This document shows positions 42,435 through 63,645 of a DNA stretch of 64,000 bases, piece after piece. Source of the DNA: Candidatus Omnitrophota bacterium (lineage in GTDB: Bacteria; Omnitrophota; Gorgyraeia; Gygaellales; Profunditerraquicolaceae); the NCBI GenBank assembly GCA_028717245.1, contig JAQUOD010000007.1:16988-80987 (forward strand), read 5' to 3'. The translations under genes and the position numbers were made by a program. Under the pieces are notes generated by a model. The model was not told where the DNA came from, did not search any database, and saw nothing but the letters and a program-made list of their open reading frames with translations. How positions within the stretch are numbered: the stretch's first letter is position 1; each line of letters opens with the position of its first letter.

Positions 42435-43466
42435 CTATAATATTCTTACCTGTCTCCTGCCTTTAATTATCTCCCCAATAACCCAGGAACGTAGGTGGGA
42501 TTTTTCTAAAGCGGATTTTATCCTGGATACGCTCTTTGGCTTAACTATTAAAACCATGCCAATACCCATATTAAAAGTTCGGTACATTTCCTCTTGTGGC
42601 ACATTGCCCTTTTTCTGCATTAGCCGGAAAATCTCCAGGGCTCTCCAGGAATCCTTGTCTATAACTACATCTACACCCCCCGGAATAACTCTGGCAATTT
42701 TATTGTAAAAAGCGCCGCCGGTGATGTGCGCTATCCCTGTAACCTGTAACCTGTAACCTGTAACCTGTAACAACGATAAAATGGGCTTGACATAAATACG
42801 CGTAGGTTTCAGTAATTCCTTATGCATACGCTTTAATTTATTTTCAGAAAAGATCTTCCTGACTAAAGAATAGCCGTTAGAGTGTATGCCGCTGGATTCT
42901 AAGCCGATAACTTTATCCCCGGGTGAGATTCTAGAGCCGTCAATAATCTTTTCTCTCTCTACCACCCCCACGCAAAAACCGGCGACGTCATAATCTCCGG
43001 CATTATACATCCCCGGCATCTGGGCAGTTTCACCGCCCACCAAAGAACAACCTGCCTGGATACAGCCGTTATTTATACCCTTGACTACGTCAAAGAGCAC
43101 ACCTGTCTCTAATTTGCTGTAAGCAATATAATCTAAGAAAAACAGAGGTTCTGCGCCGACGCATAATATATCGTTGACGTTCATAGCTACGGCGTCAATG
43201 CCTATTGTATCGTGTTTATTGGCCAGGATGGCAATCTTTAATTTTGTGCCTACTCCGTCAGAAGAAGAGACCAGGACCGGGTCTTTGTATTTTTCTTTGG
43301 GGAACCTGAAAAAACTACCGAAACCGCCGATGTCTTTTAGGACTTCTTTACGGAAAGACTTCCTGGCTAAAGTTTTCAACCGGCCCTTGAAGGCATCGGC
43401 CTTTTGGATATCTACGCCTGATTTTTGATAGGTCAAGCTCCTCATGGATGCCTCCCGGTCCAGCAA
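42435..43466 (-). CDS. purM: Phosphoribosylformylglycinamidine cyclo-ligase (AIR synthetase)
   Basis: AHITGGAF block and N-terminal PurM fold. It contains an in-frame heptanucleotide repeat insertion. Confidence 0.9.
   Translation of the reverse strand: MLDREASMRSLTYQKSGVDIQKADAFKGRLKTLARKSFRKEVLKDIGGFGSFFRFPKEKYKDPVLVSSSDGVGTKLKIAILANKHDTIGIDAVAMNVNDILCVGAEPLFFLDYIAYSKLETGVLFDVVKGINNGCIQAGCSLVGGETAQMPGMYNAGDYDVAGFCVGVVEREKIIDGSRISPGDKVIGLESSGIHSNGYSLVRKIFSENKLKRMHKELLKPTRIYVKPILSLLQVTGYRLQVTGIAHITGGAFYNKIARVIPGGVDVVIDKDSWRALEIFRLMQKKGNVPQEEMYRTFNMGIGMVLIVKPKSVSRIKSALEKSHLRSWVIGEIIKGRRQVRIL
42737..42771. repeat. In-frame heptanucleotide microsatellite (CTGTAAC)x5 inside purM
   Basis: Encodes the duplicated peptide LQVTGYRLQVTG immediately before the conserved AHITGG block. 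Confidence 0.8.
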
Positions 43467-44839
43467 TACAAACAGATCTTTTCTTTAGGCAGGCCTATGG
43501 CAGAAATCATATCATTGAGCCTCTGGTATTTCAAAGTAGTTGCGCCCAAATCTTTGGTAATCCACTCTACCAACTTCTTATGCTTGGAAGAATTCTCATC
43601 CAGGTATTCTTTAATGTCCTTTATATCTTTGCCTTCTATTGCCTTTATCGCCCGGCGCGCCACCAGTTCCTGTATGCTGCGCGTAGAATAATTGAATTTA
43701 CAGGGAAACATCAACGGCGGACAGGCAATCCTCAGGTGTATTTCTTTTACCGCGCATTCCTTGAGTTTCTGGATGGTATAATTTTTCAGTTGCGTGCCCC
43801 TGACAATGGAGTCGTCGCAACAGACAATACTTTTGCCATTGATTATTTCCGGGATAGGGATAAGTTTCATCTTGGCAATCAGGTCGCGCCTCTCCTGCGA
43901 AGCCGGCGTGTAACTACGGTCAAATCCCGGCGTATATTTTACCAGCGGCCTGCGAAAAGGGACCTTGGATTCCATGGCATAACCGATGGCATGTGTTGTC
44001 CCTGAATCCGGGATGCCTGAAACGATATCTGCCTTAATGTTATCGCGCTTGGCCAGGAACCTACCACATCTTTCCCTGACTACCTCCACGGTTATACCCT
44101 CATAAGAGGAACCGGGAAACCCTGTATATATCCATAAAAAGGAACAGATTTGATTTGTGTTATCGCCTTTGCGCTTAGATTTTAAACCGGATTCATCCAA
44201 CAAAATAACCTCTCCCGGCTGGATATATTTTATGGTCTTAAATCCTAAATTCCCAAAAGCCGTAGTCTCCGTAGTTACCGCATAGTCTTTGCCCCTCTGG
44301 CCCAAAGCTAAAGGCGTATAACCATACCTGTCCCTGGCAGCATAAATCCCTTCCTTGTTTAACAAAAGCAAAGAACAGGAACCGTCAATCTTGGAGAACA
44401 TATATTCAATACCACTCATGATAGTCTTCTCGCGGATGATCAATTTTGCCACCAGCTCCGTTAAATTAATCCTTCCGTCGGTCACTTCACTGAAGGATTT
44501 GCCCTCCTTAAAGAGCTCTTTAGCTAACTCATCGGCATTATCAATAAAGCCGTTAGTCATAATGGCAAAGGGCCCGAACTTAGAGTTAACGCATACGGGC
44601 TGTTCGTCCCTGGCGCTGATTACGCCTATGCCTTTATTGCCCGGCATCTTCTTGTAATCTTCGTAAAACTTTGCCTTGAACTGGCTTCCTCTAATATCGT
44701 GAATTTTACGGCTTAAACCTTCACTGCCATAGACTGCCAGGCCCGCAAATTGCGTGCCCAGATGCGAATGGTAATCCGTGCCATAAAAAAGGTCTTCCAG
44801 GCAATCACTCTTGGAGACCACGCCAAAAATACCGCTCAT
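43442..44839 (-). CDS. purF: Amidophosphoribosyltransferase
   Basis: MSGIFGV with Ntn Cys2 and a PRTase motif. Confidence 0.9.
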   Translation of the reverse strand: MSGIFGVVSKSDCLEDLFYGTDYHSHLGTQFAGLAVYGSEGLSRKIHDIRGSQFKAKFYEDYKKMPGNKGIGVISARDEQPVCVNSKFGPFAIMTNGFIDNADELAKELFKEGKSFSEVTDGRINLTELVAKLIIREKTIMSGIEYMFSKIDGSCSLLLLNKEGIYAARDRYGYTPLALGQRGKDYAVTTETTAFGNLGFKTIKYIQPGEVILLDESGLKSKRKGDNTNQICSFLWIYTGFPGSSYEGITVEVVRERCGRFLAKRDNIKADIVSGIPDSGTTHAIGYAMESKVPFRRPLVKYTPGFDRSYTPASQERRDLIAKMKLIPIPEIINGKSIVCCDDSIVRGTQLKNYTIQKLKECAVKEIHLRIACPPLMFPCKFNYSTRSIQELVARRAIKAIEGKDIKDIKEYLDENSSKHKKLVEWITKDLGATTLKYQRLNDMISAIGLPKEKICLYCWTGRHP

Positions 44840-44849
44840 ATTACCCCCT

Positions 44850-45656
44850 TTAAAAGTTTTTCCTTATATATTCTACCCCGTTTCTAAATATTTGTAAACC
44901 ATCTCCTTCGCTTTTCTTCTTTGCTGTCTGCCATTTCCGGGGATGCTGGAAGGCTTCGATGTGCCTCTCCGGATGAGGCATAAGCCCTAAAATCCTGCCG
45001 CTATCGTCAATAATCCCGGCAATATTATCCTGCGAGCCGTTAGGGTTATATGGATAGCCCGTAGATCTTCCTTGTTCATCGCAATACTGAAAAACAATCT
45101 GGTTATTATCTCTAATCCTCTGTAAAACTGCTTTATCCTTAGTAATAAACTTCCCTTCGCCATGCGCCACGGGCAGGTAAATTATTTCCGGTAGATTTTT
45201 TGTCCAAATGCATTTATTTTGGGATTTGGGATTTGGGATTTGGGATTTCTTTAGATACACCCAGCGGTCCTCAAATTTACCCGAATCGTTGATCACAAGC
45301 GAAGCCTCCTGCGTTAATTCATTATTGCCGGGCAATAGGCCGCTTTTTACCAGGACCTGAAAACCGTTACAGATACCGATGATTATCTTGCCTTCCTGGA
45401 TAAATTTTTTTATATCGCCTGTTAATTTATGCCTTAGTTCATTGGCTAAAATTTTTCCCGCAGCGATATCGTCTCCGTAAGTAAAGCCTCCGGGTATAGC
45501 TAAAATCTGATAATCCCTAAGGCGCTTTCTTAGTCTGATGAGGCTATTAATATGCAAAAGCTCGATAGCTGCTCCCGCCTTATGAAAGGCAAAAGCTGTC
45601 TCTCGGTCGCAATTAGTACCGGCGGTTCTTAAGATACAGGCCTTAGGTTTTTTCAT
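44850..45656 (-). CDS. purQ: Phosphoribosylformylglycinamidine synthase glutaminase subunit
   Basis: GICNGFQVL with the catalytic Cys, and HPER. It contains an in-frame TTTGGGA x4 repeat. Confidence 0.85.
   Translation of the reverse strand: MKKPKACILRTAGTNCDRETAFAFHKAGAAIELLHINSLIRLRKRLRDYQILAIPGGFTYGDDIAAGKILANELRHKLTGDIKKFIQEGKIIIGICNGFQVLVKSGLLPGNNELTQEASLVINDSGKFEDRWVYLKKSQIPNPKSQNKCIWTKNLPEIIYLPVAHGEGKFITKDKAVLQRIRDNNQIVFQYCDEQGRSTGYPYNPNGSQDNIAGIIDDSGRILGLMPHPERHIEAFQHPRKWQTAKKKSEGDGLQIFRNGVEYIRKNF
45218..45245. repeat. In-frame heptanucleotide microsatellite (TTTGGGA)x4 inside purQ
   Basis: Encodes KSQIPNPKSQNK. Confidence 0.8.
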
Positions 45657-46302
45657 AGAATCTATCTATGACGCCCACTGCTTCTTTGGGGCTGTCTACT
45701 ACTTTAAAAATGTTTAAATCCTCCTTACTGATATTGCCGTTTTTCAATACCGTGTCTTTAAGCCAGCTCAGCATGCCCTCCCAATATTCGCTGCCAAATA
45801 ATACCACGGGAAACTTAGAAATCCTCAACGTCTGGATAAGATTGATGGCCTCGGTAAATTCATCTAAAGTGCCGTAGCCTCCGGGCATAATCACAAAGGC
45901 CTTGGCGTATTTGACAAACATGACTTTACGCACGAAAAAATAACGGAAATCTAAAAGCGTATCCACGTAACTATTAGGTTTCTGCTCGCTGGGAATCTGG
46001 ATATTCAAGCCTACGGAACGGCCGCCGGCCCTCTTTGCGCCTTTATTGGCTGCCTCCATAATACCCGGGCCGCTACCGGTAATGACGGCATAGCCTTTTT
46101 TCGCCAGAAGATAGGCGAGCTCTTCGGCGAGCTTATAATATTTATCCTTCGGGCTCATACGGCTTGAGCCGAATATGGAAACCGCCTTGCCTATCCTGGA
46201 AAGAATCTCAAAACCGTCTACAAATTCAGACATGATGCGGAAGACCCGCCAGGGGTCTTCCTGGGTAAAATCGTCTTTAATAATAACTTTTGTTTTTTTC
46301 AT
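45643..46302 (-). CDS. LOG-family nucleotide 5'-monophosphate nucleosidase (lysine decarboxylase-like)
   Basis: PGGYGTLDEFTEAINLIQT matches the PGGxGTxxE signature. Confidence 0.75.
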   Translation of the reverse strand: MKKTKVIIKDDFTQEDPWRVFRIMSEFVDGFEILSRIGKAVSIFGSSRMSPKDKYYKLAEELAYLLAKKGYAVITGSGPGIMEAANKGAKRAGGRSVGLNIQIPSEQKPNSYVDTLLDFRYFFVRKVMFVKYAKAFVIMPGGYGTLDEFTEAINLIQTLRISKFPVVLFGSEYWEGMLSWLKDTVLKNGNISKEDLNIFKVVDSPKEAVGVIDRFYEKT

Positions 46303-46303
46303 C

Positions 46304-49243
46304 CTACCACCTCAATGGTTTTTGCCAGGCCTCTTTTAATGCCCCAAGTTCGGCTTTCAGGCAGACCTTATTATCCAATCCATAAACCTTAAACTCTTTA
46401 TTTTTATTCACGCAACCGATTAAGCCGAAAGGGACGCCTTTCAAAATCTTCTCAAATACTTTCTGTTTTTTCTTTTCTACCTCCACGATAAAACGTGAAT
46501 TTGACTCTGAAAATAGAATATAATCATTTCTCAAGTTTGGTCGTTGGTCGTTGGTCGTTGGTCGTTGGTCATATGGCACTTCCTTTAAGAATATCTCCAT
46601 CCCTAATCCGCCGGAAAAAGCCATCTCTGCCGCAGCAACGCCTATGCCGCCTTCTGAACAATCATGCATGGCTTTAATCAGGCCTAACGAAGATGCCCTG
46701 CTTAATGCCTCAAAGGTCAACCTTGCCTCACTGGGAAATACCTTAGGCACATCATTACCTATAAAACCTAATGTATCATAATAATGCGAGCCCCCTAATT
46801 CATCATAAGTAGGGCCGGCTATATAAATTAAATCACCTGCTTCTCTGGCATACGTGGAGATGGCCTTTTCGGTATCTTCCATTACTGCGATTGCGGAAAT
46901 CAAAAGTGTCCCCGGTATAGCCATAGATTTGTTTTTTACGGCGTATTCGTTGTTAAGGCTGTCTTTACCGGAAATAAAAGGCGCCCCGAAGGCCTTGGCA
47001 ATATCGTAACAGCCGTAGGCTGCCCTGACCAGGCCCCCTAACCTATCCGGTTTGTCGGGATTACCCCAGCAGAAATTATCCAAGAGCGCCACTTCTTTTA
47101 ATGAGCCACCGACGGCAATAACCTGGCGCAGGGCCTCGTCAATACACCCGGCAGCCATCCAGTAAGGGTCAATAAAACCAAACCTGAAGTTTATGCCGTT
47201 GGAAACGATGACGCCTTTTTTAGAATTTAAAATCGGCTTAACCACGCTAGCATCGGCAGGGCCGTCATTAGCAATGCCGACCAGGGGTTTTAAAACCGAG
47301 CCTCCCTGCACCTCATGGTCGTATTGCCTGATAACCCATTCCTTAGAACAGACGTCATAATGAGAAAGTAATTGTAAGAGGCAGGGCGTAAGGTTCCTAG
47401 GACAGCTAAACTCCGGTTCTCTGTGTTTAGGCTGGATGAATACGGCTTTTTTTTCTATTTCCGGCAGGCCCTCATGCAAGAACTGCATATCCAAATCACA
47501 GGTTAAACTGTCTTTATAGTAAAGTTTTAACCCTCGGCTACCGGTAAATTCTCCGATAACCGTGGCCTCAACATCTTCTTTATGAAAAACATCCATAAGG
47601 GCACCGAGCTTTCCCTTAGGGACCGACAGCACCATCCTTTCCTGCGATTCCGAAATCCAGATTTCGGTGTAAGAGAGGCCGGAATATTTTAAAGGGACTT
47701 TATCCAAGTCTATACGGGCCCCTAAATCGCTCCCCATTTCTCCGACAGCGCTGGATAAGCCTCCTGCGCCGCAGTCGGTAATCGCATTATACAGATTTCT
47801 ATCGCGGGCCTGTAATATCGTATCTACCATCTTTTTTTCCTGGATAGGATTGCCGATCTGCACTGCGCCGCTGGATATCTTTTCGGATTCATGCGTCAAT
47901 TCTCCCGAAGAAAAGGTAGCCCCGTGTATCCCGTCCCTGCCTGTCCTGCCTCCTACTACTACCACGAAATCACCTTTTTTTACCTGTTTAAACGATTTAT
48001 CTTTAGGCAGGATACCCGCGGTTCCGCAGTAAACTAAAGGGTTACCTGTAAAACCTTCATGGAAGAGTATTGCGCCGTTTACCGTCGGAATGCCCATTTT
48101 ATTTCCGTAGTCACGTACGCCCGAAACTACGCCCTTCATTATGCGCTTAGGGTGCAGCGTGCCGGTTGGCAGCTTGCTAAAAGGATAATCAGGCGGTCCA
48201 AAACAAAAAACATCGGTATTCAAAAAAGGCCTTGCGCCTAAACCCGTACCTAAAGGGTCACGGATTACCCCGCCTATACCTGTGTTCGCGCCGCCAAAAG
48301 GCTCCAGGGCCGACGGATGATTATGCGTTTCTACTTTAAAACAGACATTGTATTTATCGTCGAACCTGATCACTCCGGAATTATCCTGAAACACAGAGAC
48401 ACACCAGGGCTTATCCAATTCTTTAGTCACCTTCATTATCGTGGATTTAAGAAGATTATTTATTAATTTTGGCGTTAGGTTTTTGGTGTTAGGTTTTTGG
48501 TGTTTATCCTGACACCTCTCATAATATTTTATCTTACCGCGAAACGTCTTATGCCCGCAGTGCTCAGACCATGTCTGGGCAATAGTTTCTAATTCACAGT
48601 CAGTGGGGTTACGTTTTAATTTTTTGAAGTAATTCTTTATCTGCTGCATCTCCGTCACATTCAAAAATAGCTGCCCATCCTGAGAGATTCTCTTCAACCT
48701 CTCGCTTGAGGCACCCAATAAATCTACGGTGATTAAATTAAACCGGTAGCTTGATTGCGCGACGGACGAAGGGCGGCGGGCGGCGGACGAAGGATTAACA
48801 ATATGCTGGATTAATTTATTATAAAGCAGCTTCTCGGAAACCGTCTTTAACTGGTGGCGGTTGAGCCTGCCTTTGATAATATATTTTTTGGCAGTCCTTA
48901 TTGATTCTACCCCTTCTATGCCGAGATCTCTTATTCCTTTTAACACGGATTCTTCGGCGGGATCCATTACGCCCGTATTATAAGCTATTTCTATAGTGTG
49001 GTATTGCTTGGGGTCGCGGATAAGCGGCAGGAGGTTAAAGTCCTGGGTAATTTTATCTGCCAGCAGTTCTTGCGAAATCAGTCTTATTTTTTCCTCGGCT
49101 ACCCTGCCTTCAATGGCATAAACCTGCACAAAACGGACCTCTTCCACAGAATTTATCCCGAGGTCGCGGATATCCCTTTCGATGCCGCTGCCGACGGCAT
49201 CAAAGATACCCGGTTTATCGCTTACTTCAATGTGCCAAAGCAT
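46304..49243 (-). CDS. purL: Phosphoribosylformylglycinamidine synthase, PurS-PurL fusion
   Basis: 979 aa. The N-terminal ~80 aa is PurS-like, and the remainder is PurL (AIR synthase-related) domains. It contains two in-frame microsatellites. Confidence 0.85.
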   Translation of the reverse strand: MLWHIEVSDKPGIFDAVGSGIERDIRDLGINSVEEVRFVQVYAIEGRVAEEKIRLISQELLADKITQDFNLLPLIRDPKQYHTIEIAYNTGVMDPAEESVLKGIRDLGIEGVESIRTAKKYIIKGRLNRHQLKTVSEKLLYNKLIQHIVNPSSAARRPSSVAQSSYRFNLITVDLLGASSERLKRISQDGQLFLNVTEMQQIKNYFKKLKRNPTDCELETIAQTWSEHCGHKTFRGKIKYYERCQDKHQKPNTKNLTPKLINNLLKSTIMKVTKELDKPWCVSVFQDNSGVIRFDDKYNVCFKVETHNHPSALEPFGGANTGIGGVIRDPLGTGLGARPFLNTDVFCFGPPDYPFSKLPTGTLHPKRIMKGVVSGVRDYGNKMGIPTVNGAILFHEGFTGNPLVYCGTAGILPKDKSFKQVKKGDFVVVVGGRTGRDGIHGATFSSGELTHESEKISSGAVQIGNPIQEKKMVDTILQARDRNLYNAITDCGAGGLSSAVGEMGSDLGARIDLDKVPLKYSGLSYTEIWISESQERMVLSVPKGKLGALMDVFHKEDVEATVIGEFTGSRGLKLYYKDSLTCDLDMQFLHEGLPEIEKKAVFIQPKHREPEFSCPRNLTPCLLQLLSHYDVCSKEWVIRQYDHEVQGGSVLKPLVGIANDGPADASVVKPILNSKKGVIVSNGINFRFGFIDPYWMAAGCIDEALRQVIAVGGSLKEVALLDNFCWGNPDKPDRLGGLVRAAYGCYDIAKAFGAPFISGKDSLNNEYAVKNKSMAIPGTLLISAIAVMEDTEKAISTYAREAGDLIYIAGPTYDELGGSHYYDTLGFIGNDVPKVFPSEARLTFEALSRASSLGLIKAMHDCSEGGIGVAAAEMAFSGGLGMEIFLKEVPYDQRPTTNDQRPNLRNDYILFSESNSRFIVEVEKKKQKVFEKILKGVPFGLIGCVNKNKEFKVYGLDNKVCLKAELGALKEAWQKPLRW
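46538..46572. repeat. In-frame heptanucleotide microsatellite (TGGTCGT)x4 plus TGGTCAT inside purL
   Basis: Encodes YDQRPTTNDQRPN. Confidence 0.8.
48467..48504. repeat. In-frame 14 nt tandem repeat (GTTAGGTTTTTGGT, ~2.5 copies) inside purL
   Basis: Encodes HQKPNTKNLTPKL. Confidence 0.75.
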
Positions 49244-49286
49244 AAAGTTTTTAAAGATAGGGGGGTTATTTCGCGGCGGGTCTTAA

Positions 49287-50579
49287 TTATAACCCGACTT
49301 TTCGGAAAATCTTATTTACGTTACGCAGATAATAATCTAAATCAAAAATCTCATTTAACGCCTTCCGGTTGAGATAGCATAAAACTTCTTTATCCCTTAA
49401 AAGCGCTTCTTTAAAGTCCAGACTCTCCTTCCAAGACTTCATGGCATTCCTCTGTACCAGCTCATAAGCCTTCATGCGGACGATGCCTTTATCCATCAAT
49501 GCCAGAAGGACCCTCTGGGAAAAAATCAGGCCTCTCGTTTTTACTAAATTCGCCAGCATATTTTCCGGATAAACCACCAATCCCTCTATAACCTCAATAA
49601 ATTTATTCAGCATATAATCTAAGGCAAGGGTAGAATCCGGTATGATTATCCGCTCTACGGAAGAATGGCTGATATCGCGTTCATGCCACAAAGCCACATT
49701 TTCCATCGCTGCCAGGGCATTGCCGCGTAAAAGACGGGCCAGCCCGCAGATGCGTTCGCAGATAACAGGGTTACGCTTATGCGGCATGGCAGATGAACCC
49801 TTCTGTCCCTTACCAAAAGGCTCTTCCGCCTCTAAGACTTCTGTTCTCTGTAAATGCCTGATTTCAGTGGCAAACTTTTCTAAACTTGCGCCAATAACAG
49901 CTAAGGTAGCCATATATTGGGCATATACATCTCTTTGTATAACCTGGGTAGCAATGCGCGCGGGTTTAAGTCCAAGTTTCCCACAGGCATAGGCCTCTAC
50001 TTCAGGAGAAACATTGGCATAGGTACCGACTGCTCCGGAAATCTTACCGACTGCTACTTCTTCTTTTGCCAGTTTAAGGCGCTCTAAATTGCGCCTGGTC
50101 TCATCAAACCAAAGAGCGAATTTTAGGCCGAAGGTAGTAGGTTCTGCGTGCACCCCGTGGGTCCTGCCGATACAAACCATCTCCTTATATCTCTTGGCTT
50201 TCTTAGCAAGCAGATTAAGCAGATTGCTTAAGTCATTGAGTAATATATCCGAGGCTGCTTTCAGCTGTACCCCTAAAGTTGTATCCAAAAGGTCGGAAGA
50301 AGTCAGGCCAAGATGCAGGTATTTGGCATCCGTCCCAATATATTGTGCCACGTTAGCCACAAATGCCACTATATCGTGTTGCGTCTTGGTTTCTATTTTC
50401 TTAATCTGGCTTAGGTTAAACTTTGCTTTTTTCCTGACTCTCTTCGCCACATCTTGCGGGATTTTCTTTTCTTTAGCGAGGGCTTCTAGGGTGAGTATTT
50501 CTATATCCAGCATGGTTTTGAATTTAAACTCATCCTGCCAGATACTATTCATCTTGGGTAGGGTATATCTTTCGATCAT
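49287..50579 (-). CDS. purB: Adenylosuccinate lyase
   Basis: GSSAMPHKRNP fumarate-lyase signature. Confidence 0.9.
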   Translation of the reverse strand: MIERYTLPKMNSIWQDEFKFKTMLDIEILTLEALAKEKKIPQDVAKRVRKKAKFNLSQIKKIETKTQHDIVAFVANVAQYIGTDAKYLHLGLTSSDLLDTTLGVQLKAASDILLNDLSNLLNLLAKKAKRYKEMVCIGRTHGVHAEPTTFGLKFALWFDETRRNLERLKLAKEEVAVGKISGAVGTYANVSPEVEAYACGKLGLKPARIATQVIQRDVYAQYMATLAVIGASLEKFATEIRHLQRTEVLEAEEPFGKGQKGSSAMPHKRNPVICERICGLARLLRGNALAAMENVALWHERDISHSSVERIIIPDSTLALDYMLNKFIEVIEGLVVYPENMLANLVKTRGLIFSQRVLLALMDKGIVRMKAYELVQRNAMKSWKESLDFKEALLRDKEVLCYLNRKALNEIFDLDYYLRNVNKIFRKVGL

Positions 50580-50605
50580 ATCTCCTCCTTAGTGCAGAGA
50601 GGATT

Positions 50606-50633: not shown

Positions 50634-50635
50634 AT

Positions 50636-50776: not shown

Positions 50777-50816
50777 TTATATTTATTTGCGGGGAGAGGA
50801 TTTGAACCTCTGACCT
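50777..50816 (-). pseudogene. Orphan 3' half of an initiator-type tRNA-Met gene (anticodon loop through acceptor 3' strand)
   Basis: Minus strand reads CATAACCTGAAGGTCAGAGGTTCAAATCCTCTCCCCGCAA. This matches position for position the 3' half of bacterial tRNA-fMet (CAUAACCCGAAGGUCGUCGGUUCAAAUCCGGCCCCCGCAA), with compensatory changes in the T-stem. The 35 nt upstream cannot form an acceptor or D-arm. Confidence 0.55.
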
Positions 50817-50948
50817 TCAGGTTATGCTTACCACTACAGTTTTCACTGCTCCGCCACAAATCTTGGCGGATTTGTAGTCTGGACTATACCTTAATCCCAA
50901 AATTCAGGACCTCTGCCATCTAGTCTCTACACCTTCCCGTCGTAAAAC

Positions 50949-51488
50949 TTAACGGGCTTGGCTCGGTATTACCTTAGAACCTTGAGGCTCCACCGAATTT
51001 GGCAGACTATCCTTCAGTCGTCTCCGGCTGAGGAGCCCATTGAATAACAAATCCCAACGTTCCCTGTATTCAGCTGACTTTGGCTTACGCTGCCTTTTAT
51101 CCGTCTCTATCAGACTTGTAGTACTACCGTAAGCTGAAAATATAGAAATAGGCATGACGTAAAACACATGCAGGGAATCAAGATACAGGATTGCGAAATC
51201 AAAATCATCTTTATCATAACGGTCCCTCAACATATGTCGGCGATTAGTCTTAGTTCTTCTTACATCAACCCCGTAAGATTTCGTCTTACGATTAAACCAA
51301 GCGCTCTTCACTTGTATGCGGATAAGTTTGCCATTAAGGTCAAGCGCTAAATCGTAGGGAAGACGATCCCCTATAGGCTTTAGCACTTTAAAGCCCCTTC
51401 TTAGCAATTCCGTTATGACTGCTGATTCCGCAATATCTGCCTTGAGCTTTGTATCCATTGAGCCTGACGAGCTACCAGACTGCTCCAC
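50949..51488 (-). CDS. Hypothetical protein, PD-(D/E)xK nuclease-like
   Basis: ESAVITELLRRGFKVL...DRLPYDLALDLNGKLIRIQVKS resembles the YraN/Hjc-like PD-(D/E)xK pattern (E...G...D...hxhQ/ExK). Confidence 0.3.
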   Translation of the reverse strand: MEQSGSSSGSMDTKLKADIAESAVITELLRRGFKVLKPIGDRLPYDLALDLNGKLIRIQVKSAWFNRKTKSYGVDVRRTKTNRRHMLRDRYDKDDFDFAILYLDSLHVFYVMPISIFSAYGSTTSLIETDKRQRKPKSAEYRERWDLLFNGLLSRRRLKDSLPNSVEPQGSKVIPSQAR

Positions 51489-51594
51489 CCCGCGAAAATC
51501 ACTTGCTATAACTTAACGAGCTAACAAAGAACAATTTACTTCTACCTATCTATATGATTATGATACCGTAACCATCCTGATAACGCAAGGATTA

Positions 51595-56579: not shown

Positions 56580-56597
56580 TAAATCACCCCACCACTC

Positions 56598-57167
56598 TTA
56601 CGCTTCCTCTTTAGTAGTAGCACAGTTAGGCGGGCCGGGTGGACAAAGCTTGCCACAATCAATGCACTCATCGCGCAGGCCCAAAGAATGCCCTAATTCA
56701 TGCAAGAACCCCTTGGAGAAACTCTGCGCATTAGCATATCTGGCTCTGCCTAAAATAACCAAGGAGAGTTTATCGCGCGAAGATAGCTCCGCGCAGGAAA
56801 CCGAACCTTGCGCATCAATTATAATCAATTTATATTCGGATTTAAGCTTATTCTTGATGCCGTCCAAAAAATCCTGGCGTACCTTTAGCGGCGGAAAGCC
56901 CTGGGCTTTTTTAAAATTCTTCTCTCCTTCATCCAGCGGCATCTGCACCTGCCAAGCATTTATTACATCCGTGAATTCATCAAAGGGCCTGGCCTTTTTT
57001 AATCTCTCCAGAATTACGCCGATATCCTTTGAAGAATCATCCCTATCAGAATAATGCAGCGGGCAAAAGACTAAATTAAGCCGCGGCTTATTCTGCTCTT
57101 TATTTGTCGGCTCTATGGTCCAACTAAGGCCATTATTTAAGAAAGAGGCCAAGAAAAAAAACAACAA
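56598..57167 (-). CDS. Secreted zinc metalloprotease, metzincin-like
   Basis: HELGHSLGLRDE is an HExxHxxGxxD/H motif. There is an N-terminal hydrophobic signal-like segment. Confidence 0.55.
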   Translation of the reverse strand: MLFFFLASFLNNGLSWTIEPTNKEQNKPRLNLVFCPLHYSDRDDSSKDIGVILERLKKARPFDEFTDVINAWQVQMPLDEGEKNFKKAQGFPPLKVRQDFLDGIKNKLKSEYKLIIIDAQGSVSCAELSSRDKLSLVILGRARYANAQSFSKGFLHELGHSLGLRDECIDCGKLCPPGPPNCATTKEEA

Positions 57168-57268
57168 GAATAATTACCTTCATCATATAAATCCCCCGTT
57201 CCACCTGCGATGTGGAACGGGTGTGGAACGATCTATCTTAAAACAATTTCGTAGGATTCGTAGGATTT

Positions 57269-57922
57269 TTATTGTTTCTGACACCATTGCTCGCAAAAAC
57301 CGCCGGTGTAGGTCAATGTGCACGCATTACTGCCGCTGTCAGCCGTGTTTGGTGTTGTATGCTGATGGGTAAATGTGGTTATACAGCCCCCAAAATCAGT
57401 AACTGGAATCCAGCCTGTTGGACACTCTGGAGGAGTACAGGACGATTCACCGGTACAATGATATTGTGTAACATACGCGGCACAAGCCGAACAATTACGC
57501 TGCCACCCACACTTTAAAGAAACCATTGCGCCGCCGCCTCCCTGTGTCACCCAGCCTCCAGCACCATAATAATAGAATGCTCCAGGAGTAGAGTCAGCGG
57601 GATTATTGTCTATATAAACCAACTCACCCTCTTTAGCATTAGATTCCGGGAGTTCACTCTGCGGTTTATAGATTACGCTCCTGGCCACATACAGCTGGCC
57701 ATTCTCCGGCGGCTGGTCATTGGCATCTAAGCTGCCACCGCTATCGTTTGTATCACCCACGGCAAACCTGTTGGTCTGTAGTTGGTTGTAGACACCGTAA
57801 GGCGAAGGGTAATAGGTGGTAATAGTGAAAGTTTCTCCTTCGTCTTCTGGGGCTCCTTGGGCAAGACAAGGCAAACTAAAGAAAACTAAAATGAAACCTA
57901 AGGCTAAACCTTTTTTTAGCAT
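57269..57922 (-). CDS. Secreted Cys-rich protein, paralog B (tandem duplicate)
   Basis: Signal peptide MLKKGLALGFILVFFSLPCLAQG. The N-terminal ~95 aa is nearly identical to the ORF at 58052-58714. The C-terminus is divergent with 10 Cys. Confidence 0.6.
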   Translation of the reverse strand: MLKKGLALGFILVFFSLPCLAQGAPEDEGETFTITTYYPSPYGVYNQLQTNRFAVGDTNDSGGSLDANDQPPENGQLYVARSVIYKPQSELPESNAKEGELVYIDNNPADSTPGAFYYYGAGGWVTQGGGGAMVSLKCGWQRNCSACAAYVTQYHCTGESSCTPPECPTGWIPVTDFGGCITTFTHQHTTPNTADSGSNACTLTYTGGFCEQWCQKQ

Positions 57923-58051
57923 CGGTCACCTCCTGATTATACATTTTACCGGACAGGCCTCTATACACTTACCGCAGGATGTACATTTATTATATTTCTA
58001 TCCCCTATTTCCTTAAAAAATAGAAACGTCCCCTATTTCATATATTAAATG

Positions 58052-58714
58052 CTATTTGCAACAAATCGCCTGGCTGCTGAGATAGTTCCAGCTGCTGGTG
58101 CAATCGCCGAAAGCCCTACTGCACTTTGACGAACACTGCTCTACTCCATCCAGCCTAAGCGACTCAAAAGATTCTAGGCACGATCCACCAGCATAATACG
58201 ATGCGCTGGTGATGGTTACGCTCCAGTTTCCACCCCAGGCAGGCTTATTCCCAAAATCTTGACCAGCACACCCATTCCCGCTTGCGTACGTTACCATGGT
58301 CCATCCCTCTCCCAGCGAGGAACAGGTTGGGTTGTTATCGCTAAAACAAAGACCTTTACATGTCGAATAGGGAATCTCGGCTTCTCCCAATAGTTTCCAA
58401 CCCGAGCTAGTGTAGAAATAAAACTTTTCATCATTACCATAAACCAGTTCGCCTCGTTGAGGGTTGGCAAGCCCATCTTTATTCACAGGGTTGTAGATAA
58501 CACTTCTGGCCACAGCTATCTGTCCCTTCTCCGGCGGCTGGTCAGTATCGCCTACGGCGAACTTATTGGTCTCTAGTTCATTATACGAGCCGTAAGGCGA
58601 AGGGTAATAGGTAGCAATAGTGAAAGTTTCTCCTTCGTCTTCTGGGGCTCCTTGGACAAGACAAGGCAGGATAAACAAAAGTAAAAAACCTAAGATTAAA
58701 CCTTTTTTCAGCAT
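58052..58714 (-). CDS. Secreted Cys-rich protein, paralog A, translationally coupled to rnfB
   Basis: ATG lies 4 nt after the rnfB stop, using an AGGAGGTGA RBS inside rnfB. It has a signal peptide and a C-terminus with 10 Cys and no CxxCH motif. Confidence 0.6.
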   Translation of the reverse strand: MLKKGLILGFLLLFILPCLVQGAPEDEGETFTIATYYPSPYGSYNELETNKFAVGDTDQPPEKGQIAVARSVIYNPVNKDGLANPQRGELVYGNDEKFYFYTSSGWKLLGEAEIPYSTCKGLCFSDNNPTCSSLGEGWTMVTYASGNGCAGQDFGNKPAWGGNWSVTITSASYYAGGSCLESFESLRLDGVEQCSSKCSRAFGDCTSSWNYLSSQAICCK

Positions 58715-58717
58715 CGG

Positions 58718-59503
58718 TCACCTCCTGATAATACATTTTACCGGACAGACCTCTATACACTTACCGCAGGATGTACATTTATTATAGTCTATTATTGCCA
58801 GATTGTCTATGACATGTATAGCGTCAACCGGACAAACCTGTTCGCACTTACGGCAGGCAATACAGCCTACCGGACAGACTAGCCGGGTATCTTTTCCTAA
58901 ATCATGGGAGCTGCAGGCAACATAGACATCATGTGTTACAGGCACAAGGGTGAATAATTTCTTCGGGCAGATGAGCACGCATTTATTACAGGCCTTGCAT
59001 TTATCCTTATCCACTACGGGTAAACCTGTATCAGACATCTTGATGGCGTCAAAAGGGCAAACTCTCACACAACTACCAAATCCTAAACAGCCCCAAACGC
59101 ACTCCTTCTGTCCGCCTAAAACTAAATTAGCAGCCACACAATCTTCTATGCCCGAATACAGGAACCTGTCCTTTACTTTTGTGCCGCCAGCGCAGTGTAA
59201 AACCGCAACTGCCTTTTCTATTTTTTGCAGCTTCCTGCCTAAAGCCTCGGCAATTTGCTTCTTGGTTTCATCGCTGCTGACCCGGCAGGCATCTATTTTC
59301 AGCTTACCGCTGAGCACCGATTCCGCAAAGCCAAAACAACCTGCCCCGCCGCAGGCGCCGCAGTTTGAACCCGGCAGCAAACCATGGATTTTTTCTAAAC
59401 GGGCATCCACATGGACTGCCAGCTTTTTAGAAGCGAGTGCCAAACCCACCCCAAATAAAAGGCCCAAAACACCCAAAGTTAAAATCGGTATCAGAATTTC
59501 CAT
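58718..59503 (-). CDS. rnfB: Rnf electron transport complex subunit B
   Basis: N-terminal TM, a CGACGGAGC...C 'FeS' domain, then several CxxCxxCxxxCP ferredoxin motifs. Confidence 0.85.
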   Translation of the reverse strand: MEILIPILTLGVLGLLFGVGLALASKKLAVHVDARLEKIHGLLPGSNCGACGGAGCFGFAESVLSGKLKIDACRVSSDETKKQIAEALGRKLQKIEKAVAVLHCAGGTKVKDRFLYSGIEDCVAANLVLGGQKECVWGCLGFGSCVRVCPFDAIKMSDTGLPVVDKDKCKACNKCVLICPKKLFTLVPVTHDVYVACSSHDLGKDTRLVCPVGCIACRKCEQVCPVDAIHVIDNLAIIDYNKCTSCGKCIEVCPVKCIIRR

Positions 59504-59622
59504 ATAAAATTTAAATTAAATCACTTGTAACCTACAACATAATTAAGATTTTTTACCCCCTAAAACCTTCCCGCCAAACTACCTTTATACGATAGCGGGA
59601 TCCCGCTTGCTAATTAATTAGC

Positions 59623-60231
59623 TTAGCGGGAAAATCCATTAAACCCCAAGAAACTCAAACTCATAATTGAGGCAATAATAAAAGCAAGCGGAAATTCTTT
59701 TAAGGCCTTTGGGCAATTACAAAAATCCAGCCTCTCCCTTATCCCCGACATTAAAAGCATGGCCAGGGTATAGCCTAACCCCACGCAGATACCCTGGAAT
59801 AAGGAATAGTAAAAACTGCCTGCTATGGCCTTGCCGTTCCTAAAAAACATATCTATATTTAAAACTGCTACGCCCAATACCGCGCAGTTTACCGTAATCA
59901 AAGGCAGGTATATGCCGAAAAACCTGTATAAGGATGGGCTAATCTTCCTAATAGCCATCTCCACCAACTGCACAAAGGTAGCAATGACTAAAATAAAAGA
60001 TATGGTGCGCAGGTATGTAAGTCCAAAGGGGATGAGTAAAAAACGGTAGATAAACCAGGTAATAATAGATGACATGGTGACTACAAACATTACCGCAAGA
60101 CTCATCGCCAGGGCCGGCTTGGTTTCTTTGGAGATAGCGATAAAAGAGCATAATCCCAAAAAGCGGGAGAGTATGACATTATAGACAAAGACCGCGGAGA
60201 TAAATATGCTTAAAAACTGCGCCACATTCAT
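59623..60231 (-). CDS. rnfA: Rnf complex subunit A
   Basis: ~200 aa polytopic membrane protein of the RnfA/E family, sitting in the A position of the C-D-G-E-A-B order. Confidence 0.8.
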   Translation of the reverse strand: MNVAQFLSIFISAVFVYNVILSRFLGLCSFIAISKETKPALAMSLAVMFVVTMSSIITWFIYRFLLIPFGLTYLRTISFILVIATFVQLVEMAIRKISPSLYRFFGIYLPLITVNCAVLGVAVLNIDMFFRNGKAIAGSFYYSLFQGICVGLGYTLAMLLMSGIRERLDFCNCPKALKEFPLAFIIASIMSLSFLGFNGFSR

Positions 60232-60821
60232 ATTTTCTTACTCTTTAAGACATTAAAAAAGCCGAGCAAAAGCCCAATTACCAAAAGCGCGCCCGAGGGC
60301 ATACCCAAAACAAATGCCGGTTCATAACTTTTAATCAGGTTATGCCCCATAATTGTCCCTGCGCCTAAGAACTCCCTTATGCCGGAGATTAAGATTAAAG
60401 CCAGGGTAAAACCAATGCCCATACCCAATCCGTCAAACAGGGAATTTAAGGCCGTCTGCTTCTGGGCATAAGCCTCAGCGCGGCCTAAGACCATACAATT
60501 GACGACGATTAAAGGCACATAAATGCCCAGGGCGCGGTTTAACGCCGGGCTGTACGCCTTCATAGTCAGTTCAGCAATAGTCACGAAGGTGGCAATGACT
60601 ACAATAAAACAGGGAATGCGGATCCTCGCAGGGACAATATTCTTAATCAGAGAAACAATTATGTTAGAACCTACAAGCACAAAAGTAGCGGCAATACCCA
60701 TGCCTAGGCCATTCGTTACTGACGTAGATACTGCCAGGGTAGGACATAAGCCCAAGGCCAAAACAAAAGTGGGGTTCTCTTTAATAATACCTTTTAAGAA
60801 TTCAGCAAATAAATTTTTCAT
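60228..60821 (-). CDS. rnfE: Rnf complex subunit E
   Basis: RnfA/E family paralogue, assigned by its position between rnfG and rnfA. Confidence 0.8.
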   Translation of the reverse strand: MKNLFAEFLKGIIKENPTFVLALGLCPTLAVSTSVTNGLGMGIAATFVLVGSNIIVSLIKNIVPARIRIPCFIVVIATFVTIAELTMKAYSPALNRALGIYVPLIVVNCMVLGRAEAYAQKQTALNSLFDGLGMGIGFTLALILISGIREFLGAGTIMGHNLIKSYEPAFVLGMPSGALLVIGLLLGFFNVLKSKKI

Positions 60822-61810
60822 CTTGTCCCGTAGATACGATTTTTTGTATACCTGTCAATTATAGGTGTAGCAGCGTTCATCATCAATATAGCATAAGAGA
60901 CACCTTCCGGGTAACCGCCCCAGAGCCGGATTACCGCAGTAATTATCCCGCATCCTATGCCAAAGATAATCTGCCCCTTACGCGTCAGAGGCGAGGTAAC
61001 ATAATCCGTAGCCATAAAAAAAGCGCCCAGGATAAGGCCGCCGGATAAAATATGCAATAGCCAATCGCCGCTAAAAAGGCCTTGCGGAGCGAATATATAG
61101 GTAAATAATCCTACGGTAATTATATAAGGTACAGGGATGTGCCAGGAGATATAACCCTTAATCAAAAGAAACGCGGCACCCAATAAAAGCGCCGCTATAC
61201 AGACCTCGCCGATACAGCCGCCTCTTTTGCCTAAAAATAAATCCAGATAGGAGATGTTTTCTAACACCTTGCCTTCTTTTAATAAGGCAAGGGGCGTAGC
61301 TGAAGTGATGGCGTCAAAATTTAAGGGCTTGGTAAACCCCGCTCTTCCTCCAAATATACTGTAACTGTGAAGGAAGGGCGGGGTAAAATTAGTCAGATAT
61401 TTCGGCCAGGAGGCCATCAGGAATACCCTGCCCACCAGCGCAGGATTAAAGATATTCTGCCCCAAGCCGCCGAAAACCTGTTTACCTATAATCACGGCAA
61501 AAAACGAACCAATAACGGGTATCCAGAAAGGAACTTTAGGCGGCAGATTATAGGCAAGCAATAATCCCGTAAGCACTGCGCTGCCGTCTAAAATAGTGAT
61601 TTTTCTTCTGGTGAATACCTCTATCAACCACTCTGCGGCTACTGCCGAAAAAATACCTAAGATAATCACCCGGAGCGCATCTAAACCAAAAATAAAAACA
61701 CCGGCTGCACCAGCGGGTATCAGACTGGCTACTACTAGCCACATAATCTTACTGACTGATTCATCTTTATGCAGGTGCGGGGAAATAGAAACAATAAACT
61801 TATTTTGCAT
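60818..61810 (-). CDS. rnfD: Rnf complex subunit D
   Basis: 330 aa polytopic membrane protein of the NqrB/RnfD family, with the C-terminal SGGL...T FMN-attachment region. Confidence 0.8.
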   Translation of the reverse strand: MQNKFIVSISPHLHKDESVSKIMWLVVASLIPAGAAGVFIFGLDALRVIILGIFSAVAAEWLIEVFTRRKITILDGSAVLTGLLLAYNLPPKVPFWIPVIGSFFAVIIGKQVFGGLGQNIFNPALVGRVFLMASWPKYLTNFTPPFLHSYSIFGGRAGFTKPLNFDAITSATPLALLKEGKVLENISYLDLFLGKRGGCIGEVCIAALLLGAAFLLIKGYISWHIPVPYIITVGLFTYIFAPQGLFSGDWLLHILSGGLILGAFFMATDYVTSPLTRKGQIIFGIGCGIITAVIRLWGGYPEGVSYAILMMNAATPIIDRYTKNRIYGTR

Positions 61811-62354
61811 TTTTTGTTAACTCCTGGATGTCTTTTAATTTTTCCCGGACCGAATCCATTACTGCCTTGGAAGAAATAGTAGCGCCGGTAATCGCCTGGA
61901 CTTCGCTTAATCCTCGGATATCTTTGTTGCTGAACTGGCTGGTAAAGGCAGGCTGGGCCACGCGGCTCCCCAGGCCAGGGGTTTCATTCTGGTTTAATAT
62001 CTTGATATTAGTAATCTTTCCGTCGCTGGTTACCCCTGCCATAGTTTCGATCTGGCTGGAATAGCCTTTAGCGGATGCCTTAAATACTGTGCCGATTATT
62101 TTTTCCTGTTCATCGTAGGCATTATAATAAACAATTGCCTCGCCTGATTTCGCTGCCTCAAAACGAACGGCTTGCGGCATTACTTCCTTAAGGCCTGCCT
62201 CTTCTTCGGCCTGGGCCTGGGCAATAATCCTGGATTTAGTCAGAGAATTCACCGATGCCAAAAGCCCGGCTGCTACCGCGCATATTAACGCCAGGATAAG
62301 ACCGTAACGCAACATCTCTTTCACCCCGCTCTTCCTCCTTATCTCTACCCCCAC
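61800..62354 (-). CDS. rnfG: Rnf complex subunit G (FMN-binding)
   Basis: Single N-terminal TM and a C-terminal TGATISSKAV FMN-binding motif. Confidence 0.8.
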   Translation of the reverse strand: MGVEIRRKSGVKEMLRYGLILALICAVAAGLLASVNSLTKSRIIAQAQAEEEAGLKEVMPQAVRFEAAKSGEAIVYYNAYDEQEKIIGTVFKASAKGYSSQIETMAGVTSDGKITNIKILNQNETPGLGSRVAQPAFTSQFSNKDIRGLSEVQAITGATISSKAVMDSVREKLKDIQELTKNAK

Positions 62355-62373
62355 CCGTCAGGAAGGGCGGGGT

Positions 62374-63645
62374 TCATTTTATCGCCTCTAATTTCGCCCT
62401 TTTTATATGTTGGACTAACCTGATATTTGCCGGGCAGACATAGTTACATAAACCGCATTCAATACAGTCAAGGGCGCCGTAAATCTTAGCCTGCGGCCAA
62501 AGCTCTTTTTGAGAAGCCAAACTTATTAAAGTGGGCATAAGAAATACCGGACATTCCCTGACGCAGGCGCCGCAACGGATACAAAATTCTTCTTCCTGCA
62601 AGGCAGCCTCTTTTTTATTTAATAAGATAACTCCTGTGGTAGATTTTATCACCGGCACATCCAGCGTATATTGGGCGATCCCCATCATCGGTCCGCCCAT
62701 AATTACCTTTACGGGTTCTTCTTTTAAGGGTGTGCAGAAATCAATTAACTCTTTAATAGGCGTGCCGATTTTTGCTAAAAGATTCTTAGGCTTTGAGAGG
62801 CAACTGCCTGTTACCGTAACCACGCGTTCGTATAAAGGCTTATTCTTATAAACTGCCTCATAAATAGCAAAACAGGTGGCAACGTTATGCACGGCCACGC
62901 CGATATCAAAGGGAAGCTTAGCCTGCGGGACTTCTTTATTCAGGATATTTTTTATTAATTGCTTCTCTCCTCCTTGCGGATAAGCTGATTTTAAAACTTT
63001 TACTGCGAACTGTGAACTATGAACTGTGAACTCTTTTATCGCTTCAGGCTTATTATCCTCAATAGCTATATAAACTTTCTCAACCCCCAAACATCTTGCG
63101 ACAAGCCCTACGCCTTGTAAAATCTCTTTAGTCTTCTCTACCATCAAGCGGTAATCGCCGGTCAGGTAAGGCTCGCATTCTGCGCCGTTAATAATTAGGG
63201 TATCTACCGGTTTAGGGGGATTAAGTTTTATATGCGTGGGAAAACTTGCCCCGCCCATACCCACAATACCCGCTTCAAAAACAAGATTACGAATTTGCTC
63301 TGGCGTCAAATTCTCTATTTCGGTTTGTGATTTAGGGATAGCAGGATATGCTTTATCGCTTCGCTCACCATCAATAATTATTGACTTACAGCGGCCTGAA
63401 AACGGATGAGGCCAATCTTGAATTGAGATAACTTTACCCGATATGGACGCATGTATGGGGCTGGACACATTCGCCTGGACCCCGGCAATCTTCTGGCCGG
63501 CCAAAACAGTATCGCCTATTTTTACTTCAGGGCTGCAGATCCTACCTATATGCTGGCTTAAAGGGATATAGGCCCTGCCGGGTGAGGGCATCTTCTCTAT
63601 GGCCTTATTTTCCGTTTCTAGCTTATACTCTTCTAATCTAACCAT
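62374..63645 (-). CDS. rnfC: Rnf complex subunit C
   Basis: Two 4Fe-4S motifs (CIRCGACVRECP and CIECGLCNYVCP) and a GGASFPTH NADH/FMN region. It contains an in-frame GAACTGT-type repeat. Confidence 0.85.
   Translation of the reverse strand: MVRLEEYKLETENKAIEKMPSPGRAYIPLSQHIGRICSPEVKIGDTVLAGQKIAGVQANVSSPIHASISGKVISIQDWPHPFSGRCKSIIIDGERSDKAYPAIPKSQTEIENLTPEQIRNLVFEAGIVGMGGASFPTHIKLNPPKPVDTLIINGAECEPYLTGDYRLMVEKTKEILQGVGLVARCLGVEKVYIAIEDNKPEAIKEFTVHSSQFAVKVLKSAYPQGGEKQLIKNILNKEVPQAKLPFDIGVAVHNVATCFAIYEAVYKNKPLYERVVTVTGSCLSKPKNLLAKIGTPIKELIDFCTPLKEEPVKVIMGGPMMGIAQYTLDVPVIKSTTGVILLNKKEAALQEEEFCIRCGACVRECPVFLMPTLISLASQKELWPQAKIYGALDCIECGLCNYVCPANIRLVQHIKRAKLEAIK
63007..63033. repeat. In-frame heptanucleotide repeat GAACTGT/GAACTAT x4 inside rnfC
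   Basis: Encodes EFTVHSSQFAV. Confidence 0.75.

Follow-up and report, generated by a model that had tools for sequence, protein, structure and literature searches.

Heptanucleotide arrays recur in frame at conserved positions of core metabolic genes in Candidatus Omnitrophota and may be small repeat cassettes copied between sites

Five short tandem arrays, four built on a 7-nucleotide (nt) unit and one on a 14-nt unit, lie within purine-pathway genes and rnfC on a 64,000-nt stretch of a Candidatus Omnitrophota bacterium (assembly GCA_028717245.1, contig JAQUOD010000007.1, positions 16,988 to 80,987), which is referred to here as the window. Each array occupies a hot position that is common to other Omnitrophota. 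The interpretation that is favoured, by a modest degree, is that these arrays are very small repeat cassettes which are copied between genome positions, reshaped by slippage and filtered for reading frame. The loci used for comparison, numbered with an L, are Candidatus Omnitrophota stretches that comprise 80 loci around purSL (one genome per species), 80 metagenome loci around purQ and 7 around rnfC/purQ; comparisons that leave out the window cover about 155 other loci, or about 1.9 megabases (Mb).

Tandem Repeats Finder places all five arrays where the original prediction, made from the DNA alone, had put them, with units that are rotations of those it gave (Table 1). That prediction had also counted five host open reading frames (ORFs). 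From Pfam matches there are four, since both purL arrays belong to a single purS-purL fusion. Its description of the arrays as perfect is correct for three of them and incorrect for the rnfC array and the 14-mer. All five are in frame on the coding (minus) strand and leave their ORFs intact, and no known RNA family was found to overlap them. Perfect period-7 arrays of at least three copies number 26 in 1.29 Mb, three of them in the window, where about 0.007 would be expected; a chance origin is therefore excluded.

As had been noted, the purM array yields LLQVTGYRLQVTG immediately ahead of IAHITGG; it translates to LLQVTGYRLQVT, then G-IAHITGG. Its location is the one PurM hot position, where there is a gap of 4 amino acids (aa) relative to E. 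coli PurM and where the arrays of other Omnitrophota have a unit core, GYTAYNN, in common. The purQ array encodes KSQIPNPKSQ and occupies the main hot position of PurQ, which is flanked by RWVYL and C(V/I)WT. Within the purS-purL fusion, array a encodes DQRPTTNDQRP at the C-terminal hot position (aa 892-903), and its unit, as AACGACC, is also found in L006, L100 and L021 at PurQ or PurM sites. Array b encodes KHQKPNTKNLTPK (aa 247-259) at the hot position behind the FGAR-AT linker domain, where the loop varies from 7 to more than 30 aa among orthologues. The 14-mer of array b consists of the diverged heptamers AACACCA and AAAACCT in alternation; rotating AAAACCT gives AACCTAA, the unit that L010 has at this site. 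The rnfC array encodes EFTVHSSQFAV at RnfC hot position A, with a length equal to that of its orthologues. The PurQ and RnfC proteins of the window are 100% identical to P0162, from an NCBI Candidatus Omnitrophica metagenome-assembled genome, and to P0001, from a Candidatus Omnitrophica metagenome-assembled genome, respectively.

A repeat-generating process acting throughout the lineage had been proposed from the window, and a census of 2.02 Mb (at least three copies, at least 90% match) agrees with it. In it, period 7 accounts for 81 arrays, period 8 for 12, period 5 for 5 and period 6 for 1. In the roughly 155 loci other than the window (about 1.9 Mb), 81 of 101 short tandem arrays have period 7, which predominates throughout Omnitrophota. 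The period-6 matches fall in A-rich low-complexity sequence only, and a single period-9 array was seen. Lengths peak sharply at 30-34 nt (4.3-4.9 copies), with nothing above 36 nt; the copy number is at most about 5.7 and the units themselves are of dozens of different kinds.

Such arrays might instead result purely from local slipped-strand mispairing. They would arise in situ from direct repeats spaced by 7 nt, without transfer between sites; slippage would keep them homogeneous, and selection on frame and fold would pass only three-unit changes in permissive loops. This is a serious rival for part of the pattern and, as an account of the whole, rather unlikely. Run lengths of 21 nt plus 2 to 6 nt fit microhomology-primed events, and a heptanucleotide excess together with a polymerase-slippage hypothesis has been published for many prokaryotes (Mrazek 2007, following the summaries in PMC4679880 and PMC4692102). 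The census holds two points against it: periods 6 and 9 are essentially absent despite being frame-neutral, and isolated period-7 arrays of 2-3 copies are in no excess over those of periods 6 or 8, non-coding DNA included.

Of 107 non-redundant arrays, 93 (87%) are inside ORFs of at least 150 aa. Coding arrays are in frame without exception and have no stop codons, and from these constraints it is probable that they are translated. The coding strand is poor in T (17% in arrays versus 27% in host ORFs), and the predicted peptides are therefore hydrophilic; they are 10-12 residues in length with a 7-residue period, and are rich in S, R, T, K, Q and P. The flanks are T-rich upstream and A-rich downstream, and a comparison of about 12 independent sites revealed no common target motif other than AT-richness. 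Non-coding arrays frequently occur as inverted pairs that fold as hairpins. The pair in the window has arms of about 34 base pairs (bp), a fold energy of -18.3 kcal/mol and a z of -5.0, and is the non-coding form of the coding-array type. Others are present in L019, L146 and L165, the last of which is missing from L164. An AT-rich 8-nt array (ATTTTAAC / AACATTCA) was also observed in the purE-purD spacer.

Selection for function could also maintain the arrays, whether as a genome-specific peptide tag on purine-pathway and Rnf enzymes, e.g. for assembly or recognition, as an unstructured A/C-rich messenger RNA (mRNA) or DNA element, or as contingency loci in which one-unit slippage switches genes off. 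This is improbable. The arrays are indeed unstructured as single strands, with folding energies of about zero, a result that also dismisses DNA or RNA structure as the reason for the coding arrays. At the consensus level, however, none of 380 orthologues (134 PurSL, 150 PurQ and 96 PurM) is frameshifted at the array. There is thus no sign of off states at this level, and phase variation was set aside. The presence of similar arrays in intergenic DNA also counts against a selected function.

In coding DNA the arrays keep to a small number of permissive positions in PurSL, PurQ, PurM, PurD, RnfC and a few further proteins. The hot positions listed in Table 1 correspond to variable-length loops in orthologue alignments, and many of the peptides there show a 7-residue period. 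The expectation that each array sits in a surface loop holds for PurM, PurQ and PurSL, where the regions vary in length, and the PurM and PurQ arrays coincide with gaps or variable regions relative to solved homologues; it does not strictly hold for RnfC. The expectation that the arrays are a recent peculiarity of the window genome was not upheld, as orthologues carry arrays at the same positions across the phylum. This phylum-wide conservation of sites favours a function, while the absence of an insert from many species at any given hot site argues against one.

The PurQ loop measures 5-6 aa in 69 species; 45 species have one of 11-13 aa, 5 have one of 19-21 aa, and there are almost no intermediates. 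Its states have changed at least 25 times among 131 taxa in a neighbour-joining tree. Peptide identity within the loop is 35% at a lag of 7 and about 7% at other lags. That loop lengths move in 7-aa quanta is in favour of slippage. However, the lag-7 signal is absent from the short loops (0.26 against a background of 0.25), contrary to what slippage would suggest, and the hypothesis that short PurQ loops hold seeds of the arrays was set aside. The short loops are therefore mostly a true baseline and not collapsed arrays.

RnfC presents a different situation with respect to length. Nearly all of about 120 orthologues are equally long, and in the alignment solved RnfC has an ordinary segment opposite the array. 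The idea of an insert consequently does not apply to this protein: the array replaces a segment of normal length with no net insertion. In an AlphaFold model the segment is predicted to run from the end of a helix through a turn into the beginning of a strand, at a predicted local distance difference test (pLDDT) score of 85-88, and this fixed length and predicted structure may be counted in favour of a function. In nearly every species, RnfC has an internal 7-residue repeat whose variable residues co-vary, examples being FTVHSSQFTV, FKVQSSKFKV, FEVRSSKFEV and NYELRITNYELR. The lag-7 identity within species is 117 of 212, compared to a between-species mean of 82 and a maximum of 94 in 1000 shuffles. 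At one RnfC position, and at equal length, four species carry the perfect units AAATTCC, GAAGTTC and ACGCAAT and the imperfect AGTTCAC-type unit of the window. Since different units occupy the same place at the same length, the sites are old and their contents are young.

Copying between sites is suggested by the units that sites of one genome have in common. Units at a distance of at most 1 account for 16 of 82 within-locus pairs and 183 of 5913 between-locus pairs (permutation p < 0.0005). Base composition was considered as the cause; matching for GC accounts for part of the effect only, and GC-matched units are still shared at 25% within loci versus 5.7% between them. In L166, an 8-nt unit, AAGAGCAC, is found in 4.0-4.4 copies at three PurSL hot sites and at the PurQ hot site. 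Three of these arrays end in the same phase (GCACAAG) and the fourth ends one base further. At the shared sites, L167, which is 96-97% identical to L166, and a third strain carry 7-mers that are unrelated to this unit. A single cassette thus appears to have swept several sites recently. In L101, an identical 57-nt block of array plus hairpin is present in a MiaB-like radical-SAM gene and at the PurM hot site in the same frame, and in L100 an imperfect 24-nt array is identical in two genes. At least 8 arrays enclose a GC-rich hairpin element of 21 nt, CTGCCTGTCCGGCAGGCAG(GC), with a fold energy of -8.8 kcal/mol, and keep their phase across it. The window, too, holds a second, short copy of its purQ unit, at 34004-34018, which is counted as a point for copying.

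Slippage, one of the processes that the original prediction had suggested, fails on its own to account for the shared units, for the 8-mer at four sites whose relatives carry unrelated 7-mers, and for the 57-nt composite in two genes; the identical imperfect array of L100 is a further difficulty for it. With respect to function, the finding of one peptide on several enzymes of a genome (LRSTVYG in L057, AQEHKSTR in L166) is what a tag would look like. Against this, the identity extends to the DNA level, with shared imperfections and a nested hairpin, and units and peptides vary almost freely between species and between close strains.

Several observations concern dispersed palindromes and insertions at or near these sites. 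The CTGCCTGTCCGGCAGGCAG(GC) element is dispersed in many Omnitrophota genomes, often nested in heptamer arrays, and is translated as ..PxxPAGRQA... Other palindromic dispersed repeats that resemble repetitive extragenic palindromic (REP) sequences, e.g. GGGACAGTCCCC and AATGGGGACGGTTCTATTTTT, are found several times within a locus (L015, L052, L047, L018, L019, L156), and some are translated as GTVP within the PurSL loop behind the linker domain (L015, L052). At a second PurQ site, L166 differs from L167 by a 21-nt insertion, TTGCCTGCCTCGGTGGCAGGC, with GCAGGC direct repeats on either side. The insertion has no heptamer period and is complementary in part to its own flank, in the manner of a snap-back or templated insertion.

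Most of the variation inside protein clusters at 90% identity is found in the hot-site segment, and both the occupancy and the sequence of these sites change rapidly among related strains. The rnfC genes of L164 and L165 are 97% identical and their sole differences lie in two directly adjacent arrays, TCGGTTA with 4.57 versus 1.57 copies and CGAACAC with 4.86 versus 1.86 copies. Each array thus differs by exactly 21 nt, or three units. The earlier expectation that frame is preserved through three-unit changes agrees with this pair as well as with the quanta of the PurQ loop, and the copy-number changes seen in coding DNA are multiples of 3 only. The change was at first taken for an expansion, given that the short allele has the standard RnfC length; contraction now seems the more parsimonious direction, as two adjoining seeds of 1.57 and 1.86 copies would hardly arise by chance. 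The two three-unit differences, and the lag-7 seeds of 4 and 6 nt that the short allele retains, are points for slippage. For the window itself, the nearest relatives in genome and metagenome contig collections have only 76-79% amino-acid identity, the contig index did not contain its exact PurQ product, and the near-identical pairs among the fetched loci have a single array in common with no difference between its copies.

That the arrays are artefacts of assembly or polishing is hardly credible. The general point that all of the sequences are metagenome-assembled can be raised, and no specific support was found. The arrays, more than 100 in number, stem from independent projects and assemblers (MEGAHIT, SPAdes, JGI, ENA, NCBI), lie at homologous positions and in frame, and are shorter than a read; the L164 and L165 alleles were each recovered from at least 3 samples.

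The preferred interpretation of copied cassettes may be put as follows. A cassette would be about 30-36 nt in length, with 4-5 tandem copies of a 7-nt or, less often, 8-nt unit, and would represent a class found throughout Omnitrophota. Cassettes would spread within a genome by copy-and-paste, either as a tiny non-autonomous mobile element or through microhomology-primed templated repair between AT-rich flanks. Later reshaping could involve slipped-strand deletion or expansion by three units, point mutation and recombination between strains. Purifying selection would remove versions that are out of frame, contain stops or disturb structure, and this filter would explain why what is seen is limited to a few loops and to multiples of 21 or 24 nt.

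A number of points weigh against this interpretation. No enzyme or master copy was identified in the loci surveyed, which are loci and not whole genomes, and every sequence is a consensus assembly of a metagenome-recovered genome. Several genomes, that of the window included, carry unrelated units at their sites, so that copying between sites would be episodic and not universal. At one site, a unit core can be found across species (PurM GYTAYNN, RnfC AGTTCNN). This is in favour of slippage, and it would equally be expected of arrays that persist locally for a long time and are homogenised internally. The three-unit polymorphism is of the kind that slippage classically leaves, and the recurrence of hot sites may merely reflect loops that tolerate inserts. 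Selection for hydrophilic, stop-free sequence narrows the possible units and inflates chance identity between arrays; unit identity between genomes is 0.42%, compared to about 0.09% for random units.

A stronger version can be put forward only tentatively. In it, a trans-acting process places cassettes of about 32 nt, composed of 7-8-nt tandem units, into defined positions by writing or copying them, whatever sequence preceded. Candidates for the process are a templated repair pathway and a new, ultra-small mobile element that has a mobilising enzyme of its own. If true, it would overwrite loops of several core enzymes in concert and amount to a dedicated generator of loop variation. It would also offer a mechanistic answer to the heptanucleotide excess noted in prokaryotes since the 1990s, and perhaps operate in other heptamer-rich lineages.

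On the evidence of these arrays, core metabolic enzymes throughout a phylum can harbour non-triplet tandem repeats that are stable, are inherited and evolve fast, remodelling loops 7 residues at a time. Orthologous hot sites, strain pairs and single-unit sweeps make the origin of bacterial heptanucleotide repeats testable, since slippage and copy-paste make different predictions that can be checked on existing metagenome reads and closed genomes. From a practical standpoint, the cassettes inflate apparent divergence and indels in Omnitrophota marker and metabolic genes and could serve as strain-level markers.

The host genes in the window are part of a larger group with the order purE, purD, an unassigned ORF, purM, purF, purQ, a LOG-family gene, purSL and purB, which is followed by enolase, ftsH, purN and rnfBAEGDC. 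Among the remaining features (Table 1), a tRNA-fMet(CAU)-like gene has its anticodon loop split by a group I intron, and ARAGORN made no call for the split tRNA. The first 20,300 nt of the window form a prophage-like or plasmid-like block in which heptamer arrays are absent. Next to a ParB gene of this block, inside a 313-aa ORF with no Pfam match, are tandem repeats with 15-nt and 23-nt units, the latter with an internal palindrome, TCTTGAC..GTCAAGA. The three 23-nt copies are likewise frame-preserving, and the repeats could be a partition site or iterons. Two tandem paralogous ORFs without Pfam matches (region 57269-58786) are 81-95% identical over about 330 nt, upstream regions included. 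In other loci, purB and purD are broken up by blocks of about 100 nt, accompanied by 55-nt direct repeats at a spacing of 155 nt. Scaffolding may have produced these blocks as artefacts, or they may be small insertions.

Table 1. Arrays, host genes, hot positions and other features. Positions refer to the window unless a locus or protein is named.
Feature	Position	Strand	Details
purM array	42736-42771	-	coding unit GTTACAG x 5.1, 36 nt, 100% match
purQ array	45218-45248	-	coding unit AAATCCC x 4.4, 31 nt, 100% match
purS-purL array a	46537-46570	-	coding unit GACCAAC x 4.9, 34 nt, 100% match
purS-purL array b	48467-48504	-	14-nt unit x 2.7, 95% match
rnfC array	63002-63032	-	AGTTCAC AGTTCAT AGTTCAC AGTTCGC AGT, 4.4 copies, 87% match
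purM host gene	42435-43466	-	AIRS and AIRS_C domains
purQ host gene	44850-45656	-	GATase_5 domain
purS-purL fusion host gene	46304-49243	-	979 aa
rnfC host gene	62374-63645	-	Pfam RnfC
Short second copy of purQ unit	34004-34018	+	CAAATCC, 2.1 units, inside VanZ-like ORF, opposite orientation
Inverted pair of 8-nt arrays	36607-36679	.	intergenic, between two minus-strand ORFs; each ~4.2 copies, 34 nt
AT-rich 8-nt array	40412-40451		3.4-4.4 copies, in 50-nt purE-purD spacer
PurSL hot positions	aa ~73-99, ~157-178, ~245-297, ~889-921		36 arrays, 134 orthologues
PurQ hot positions	aa ~135-145 (24 arrays)		27 arrays, 150 orthologues
PurM hot position	directly before IAHITGG (all arrays)		15 arrays, 96 orthologues
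PurD hot position	one position		3 arrays, 65 orthologues
RnfC hot positions	two positions		6 arrays, 5 orthologues
PurF			1 array, 103 orthologues
PurB			0 arrays, 99 orthologues
CTGCCTGTCCGGCAGGCAG(GC) element	L006 17951; L014 2234; L022 1455; L076 11614; L101 622 and 4710; L128 5202; L005 8171		list not exhaustive
Inverted array pair	L165 3976-4089
21-nt insertion TTGCCTGCCTCGGTGGCAGGC	L166 6750-6770
tRNA-fMet(CAU)-like gene	50790-51495	-
Group I intron	50854-51058		Rfam RF00028, 58.4 bits
Intron ORF	50949-51488		PD-(D/E)XK endonuclease domain (PF11645)
Prophage-like or plasmid-like block	1-20300
Lambda-type portal	825-2468		block 1-20300
Large terminase	4039-5940		block 1-20300
ParB-methylase	6998-8290		block 1-20300
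Radical SAM gene			block 1-20300
Methyltransferase			block 1-20300
tRNA-Met	17986-18071		block 1-20300
ParB	18075-19379		block 1-20300
Repeats adjoining ParB	19851-19960		15-nt unit x 2.5 and 23-nt unit x 3.0
Tandem paralogous ORFs	57269-57922 and 58052-58714
Blocks interrupting purB and purD	L035 ~7212-7326, 18507-18609; L053 ~8168-8269		L053 compared with L123

A search of the literature found no report of repeats in Omnitrophota, or of conserved in-frame hot sites with unit sweeps within a genome, and the arrays may be considered alongside several known systems. Mazel is said to have described short tandemly repeated heptamers in cyanobacteria in 1990, and Elhai, in 2008, reportedly described small dispersed repeats of 21-27 nt in Nostoc as tiny hairpin elements nested in heptamer arrays. 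The 21-nt hairpin nested in Omnitrophota arrays mirrors this reported arrangement. The GGGGATT arrays of Nostoc reach 26 copies (PMC4692102). While cyanobacterial arrays have few fixed units, are mostly intergenic and are often long, those of Omnitrophota are mostly coding, do not exceed about 5.7 copies and have many units. Four units are preferred in the GGGNATC repeats of Xanthomonas and Nostoc.

Palindromic elements of Rickettsia, attributed to Ogata et al. in 2000, are reportedly selfish, inserted in frame at tolerated positions of conserved housekeeping genes, and translated. In-frame placement in conserved genes at tolerated positions is thus a feature in common. The Rickettsia elements, however, are palindromes of 100-150 bp in few families, whereas the Omnitrophota arrays are direct tandem arrays of 30-36 nt with no secondary structure.

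REP sequences and REPINs are a second class of palindromic repeat, the latter being inverted REP doublets that form hairpins (PMC3116915). The Omnitrophota arrays are likewise short and dispersed within a genome, and the intergenic ones often form inverted doublets that fold as hairpins. A REP, however, is a palindrome outside genes with a link to REP-associated tyrosine transposases, whereas the coding arrays are direct repeats with no fold and lie inside genes. Annotation, which covered part of the ORFs in the window and was not aimed at such an association, revealed no transposase of this kind.

Borg elements contain rapidly evolving perfect tandem repeats within genes, which create new hydrophilic or disordered protein segments (PMC9879509). 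Their within-gene units are divisible by three, have independent origins and show no link to orthologous hot sites, in contrast to the 7- or 8-nt units of Omnitrophota. Marine Beggiatoaceae have dispersed heptamer direct repeats, as do Omnitrophota. There, TAACTGA is found genome-wide, occasionally in ORFs near protein termini, and is possibly mobile (PMC4679880). It is, however, a single unit that is overwhelmingly intergenic and upstream of start codons, with stops in all frames in its forward orientation.

The original prediction had seen no known pattern in heptanucleotide repeats of this kind, yet a prokaryotic excess has been published (Mrazek 2007, cited for this in PMC4692102 and PMC4679880), along with a heptamer family in Geobacter (PMC2700814). 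As summarised there, Mrazek, Guo and Shah report for long simple sequence repeats that 7 nt is the most abundant unit length among units of 5-11 nt in prokaryotes, propose polymerase slippage and leave the length of 7 unexplained (PMC4679880, PMC4692102). According to the same summaries, repeats within genes are mostly multiples of three, whereas non-multiples dominate within Omnitrophota genes; conserved hot positions, a sharp mode at 4-5 copies and the sharing of units between sites also set the Omnitrophota arrays apart from the repeats described there. Geobacter metallireducens has elements of four tandem heptanucleotides, GGACCGG, in 49 copies within and between genes (PMC2700814). Like these, the Omnitrophota arrays have about four heptamers each, are dispersed, and are also found inside genes, sometimes more than one per gene. 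While the Geobacter family has one consensus unit, is described from one genome and has been read as regulatory RNA, the Omnitrophota arrays have dozens of units, orthologous hot sites throughout the phylum, in-frame constraints and strain polymorphism.

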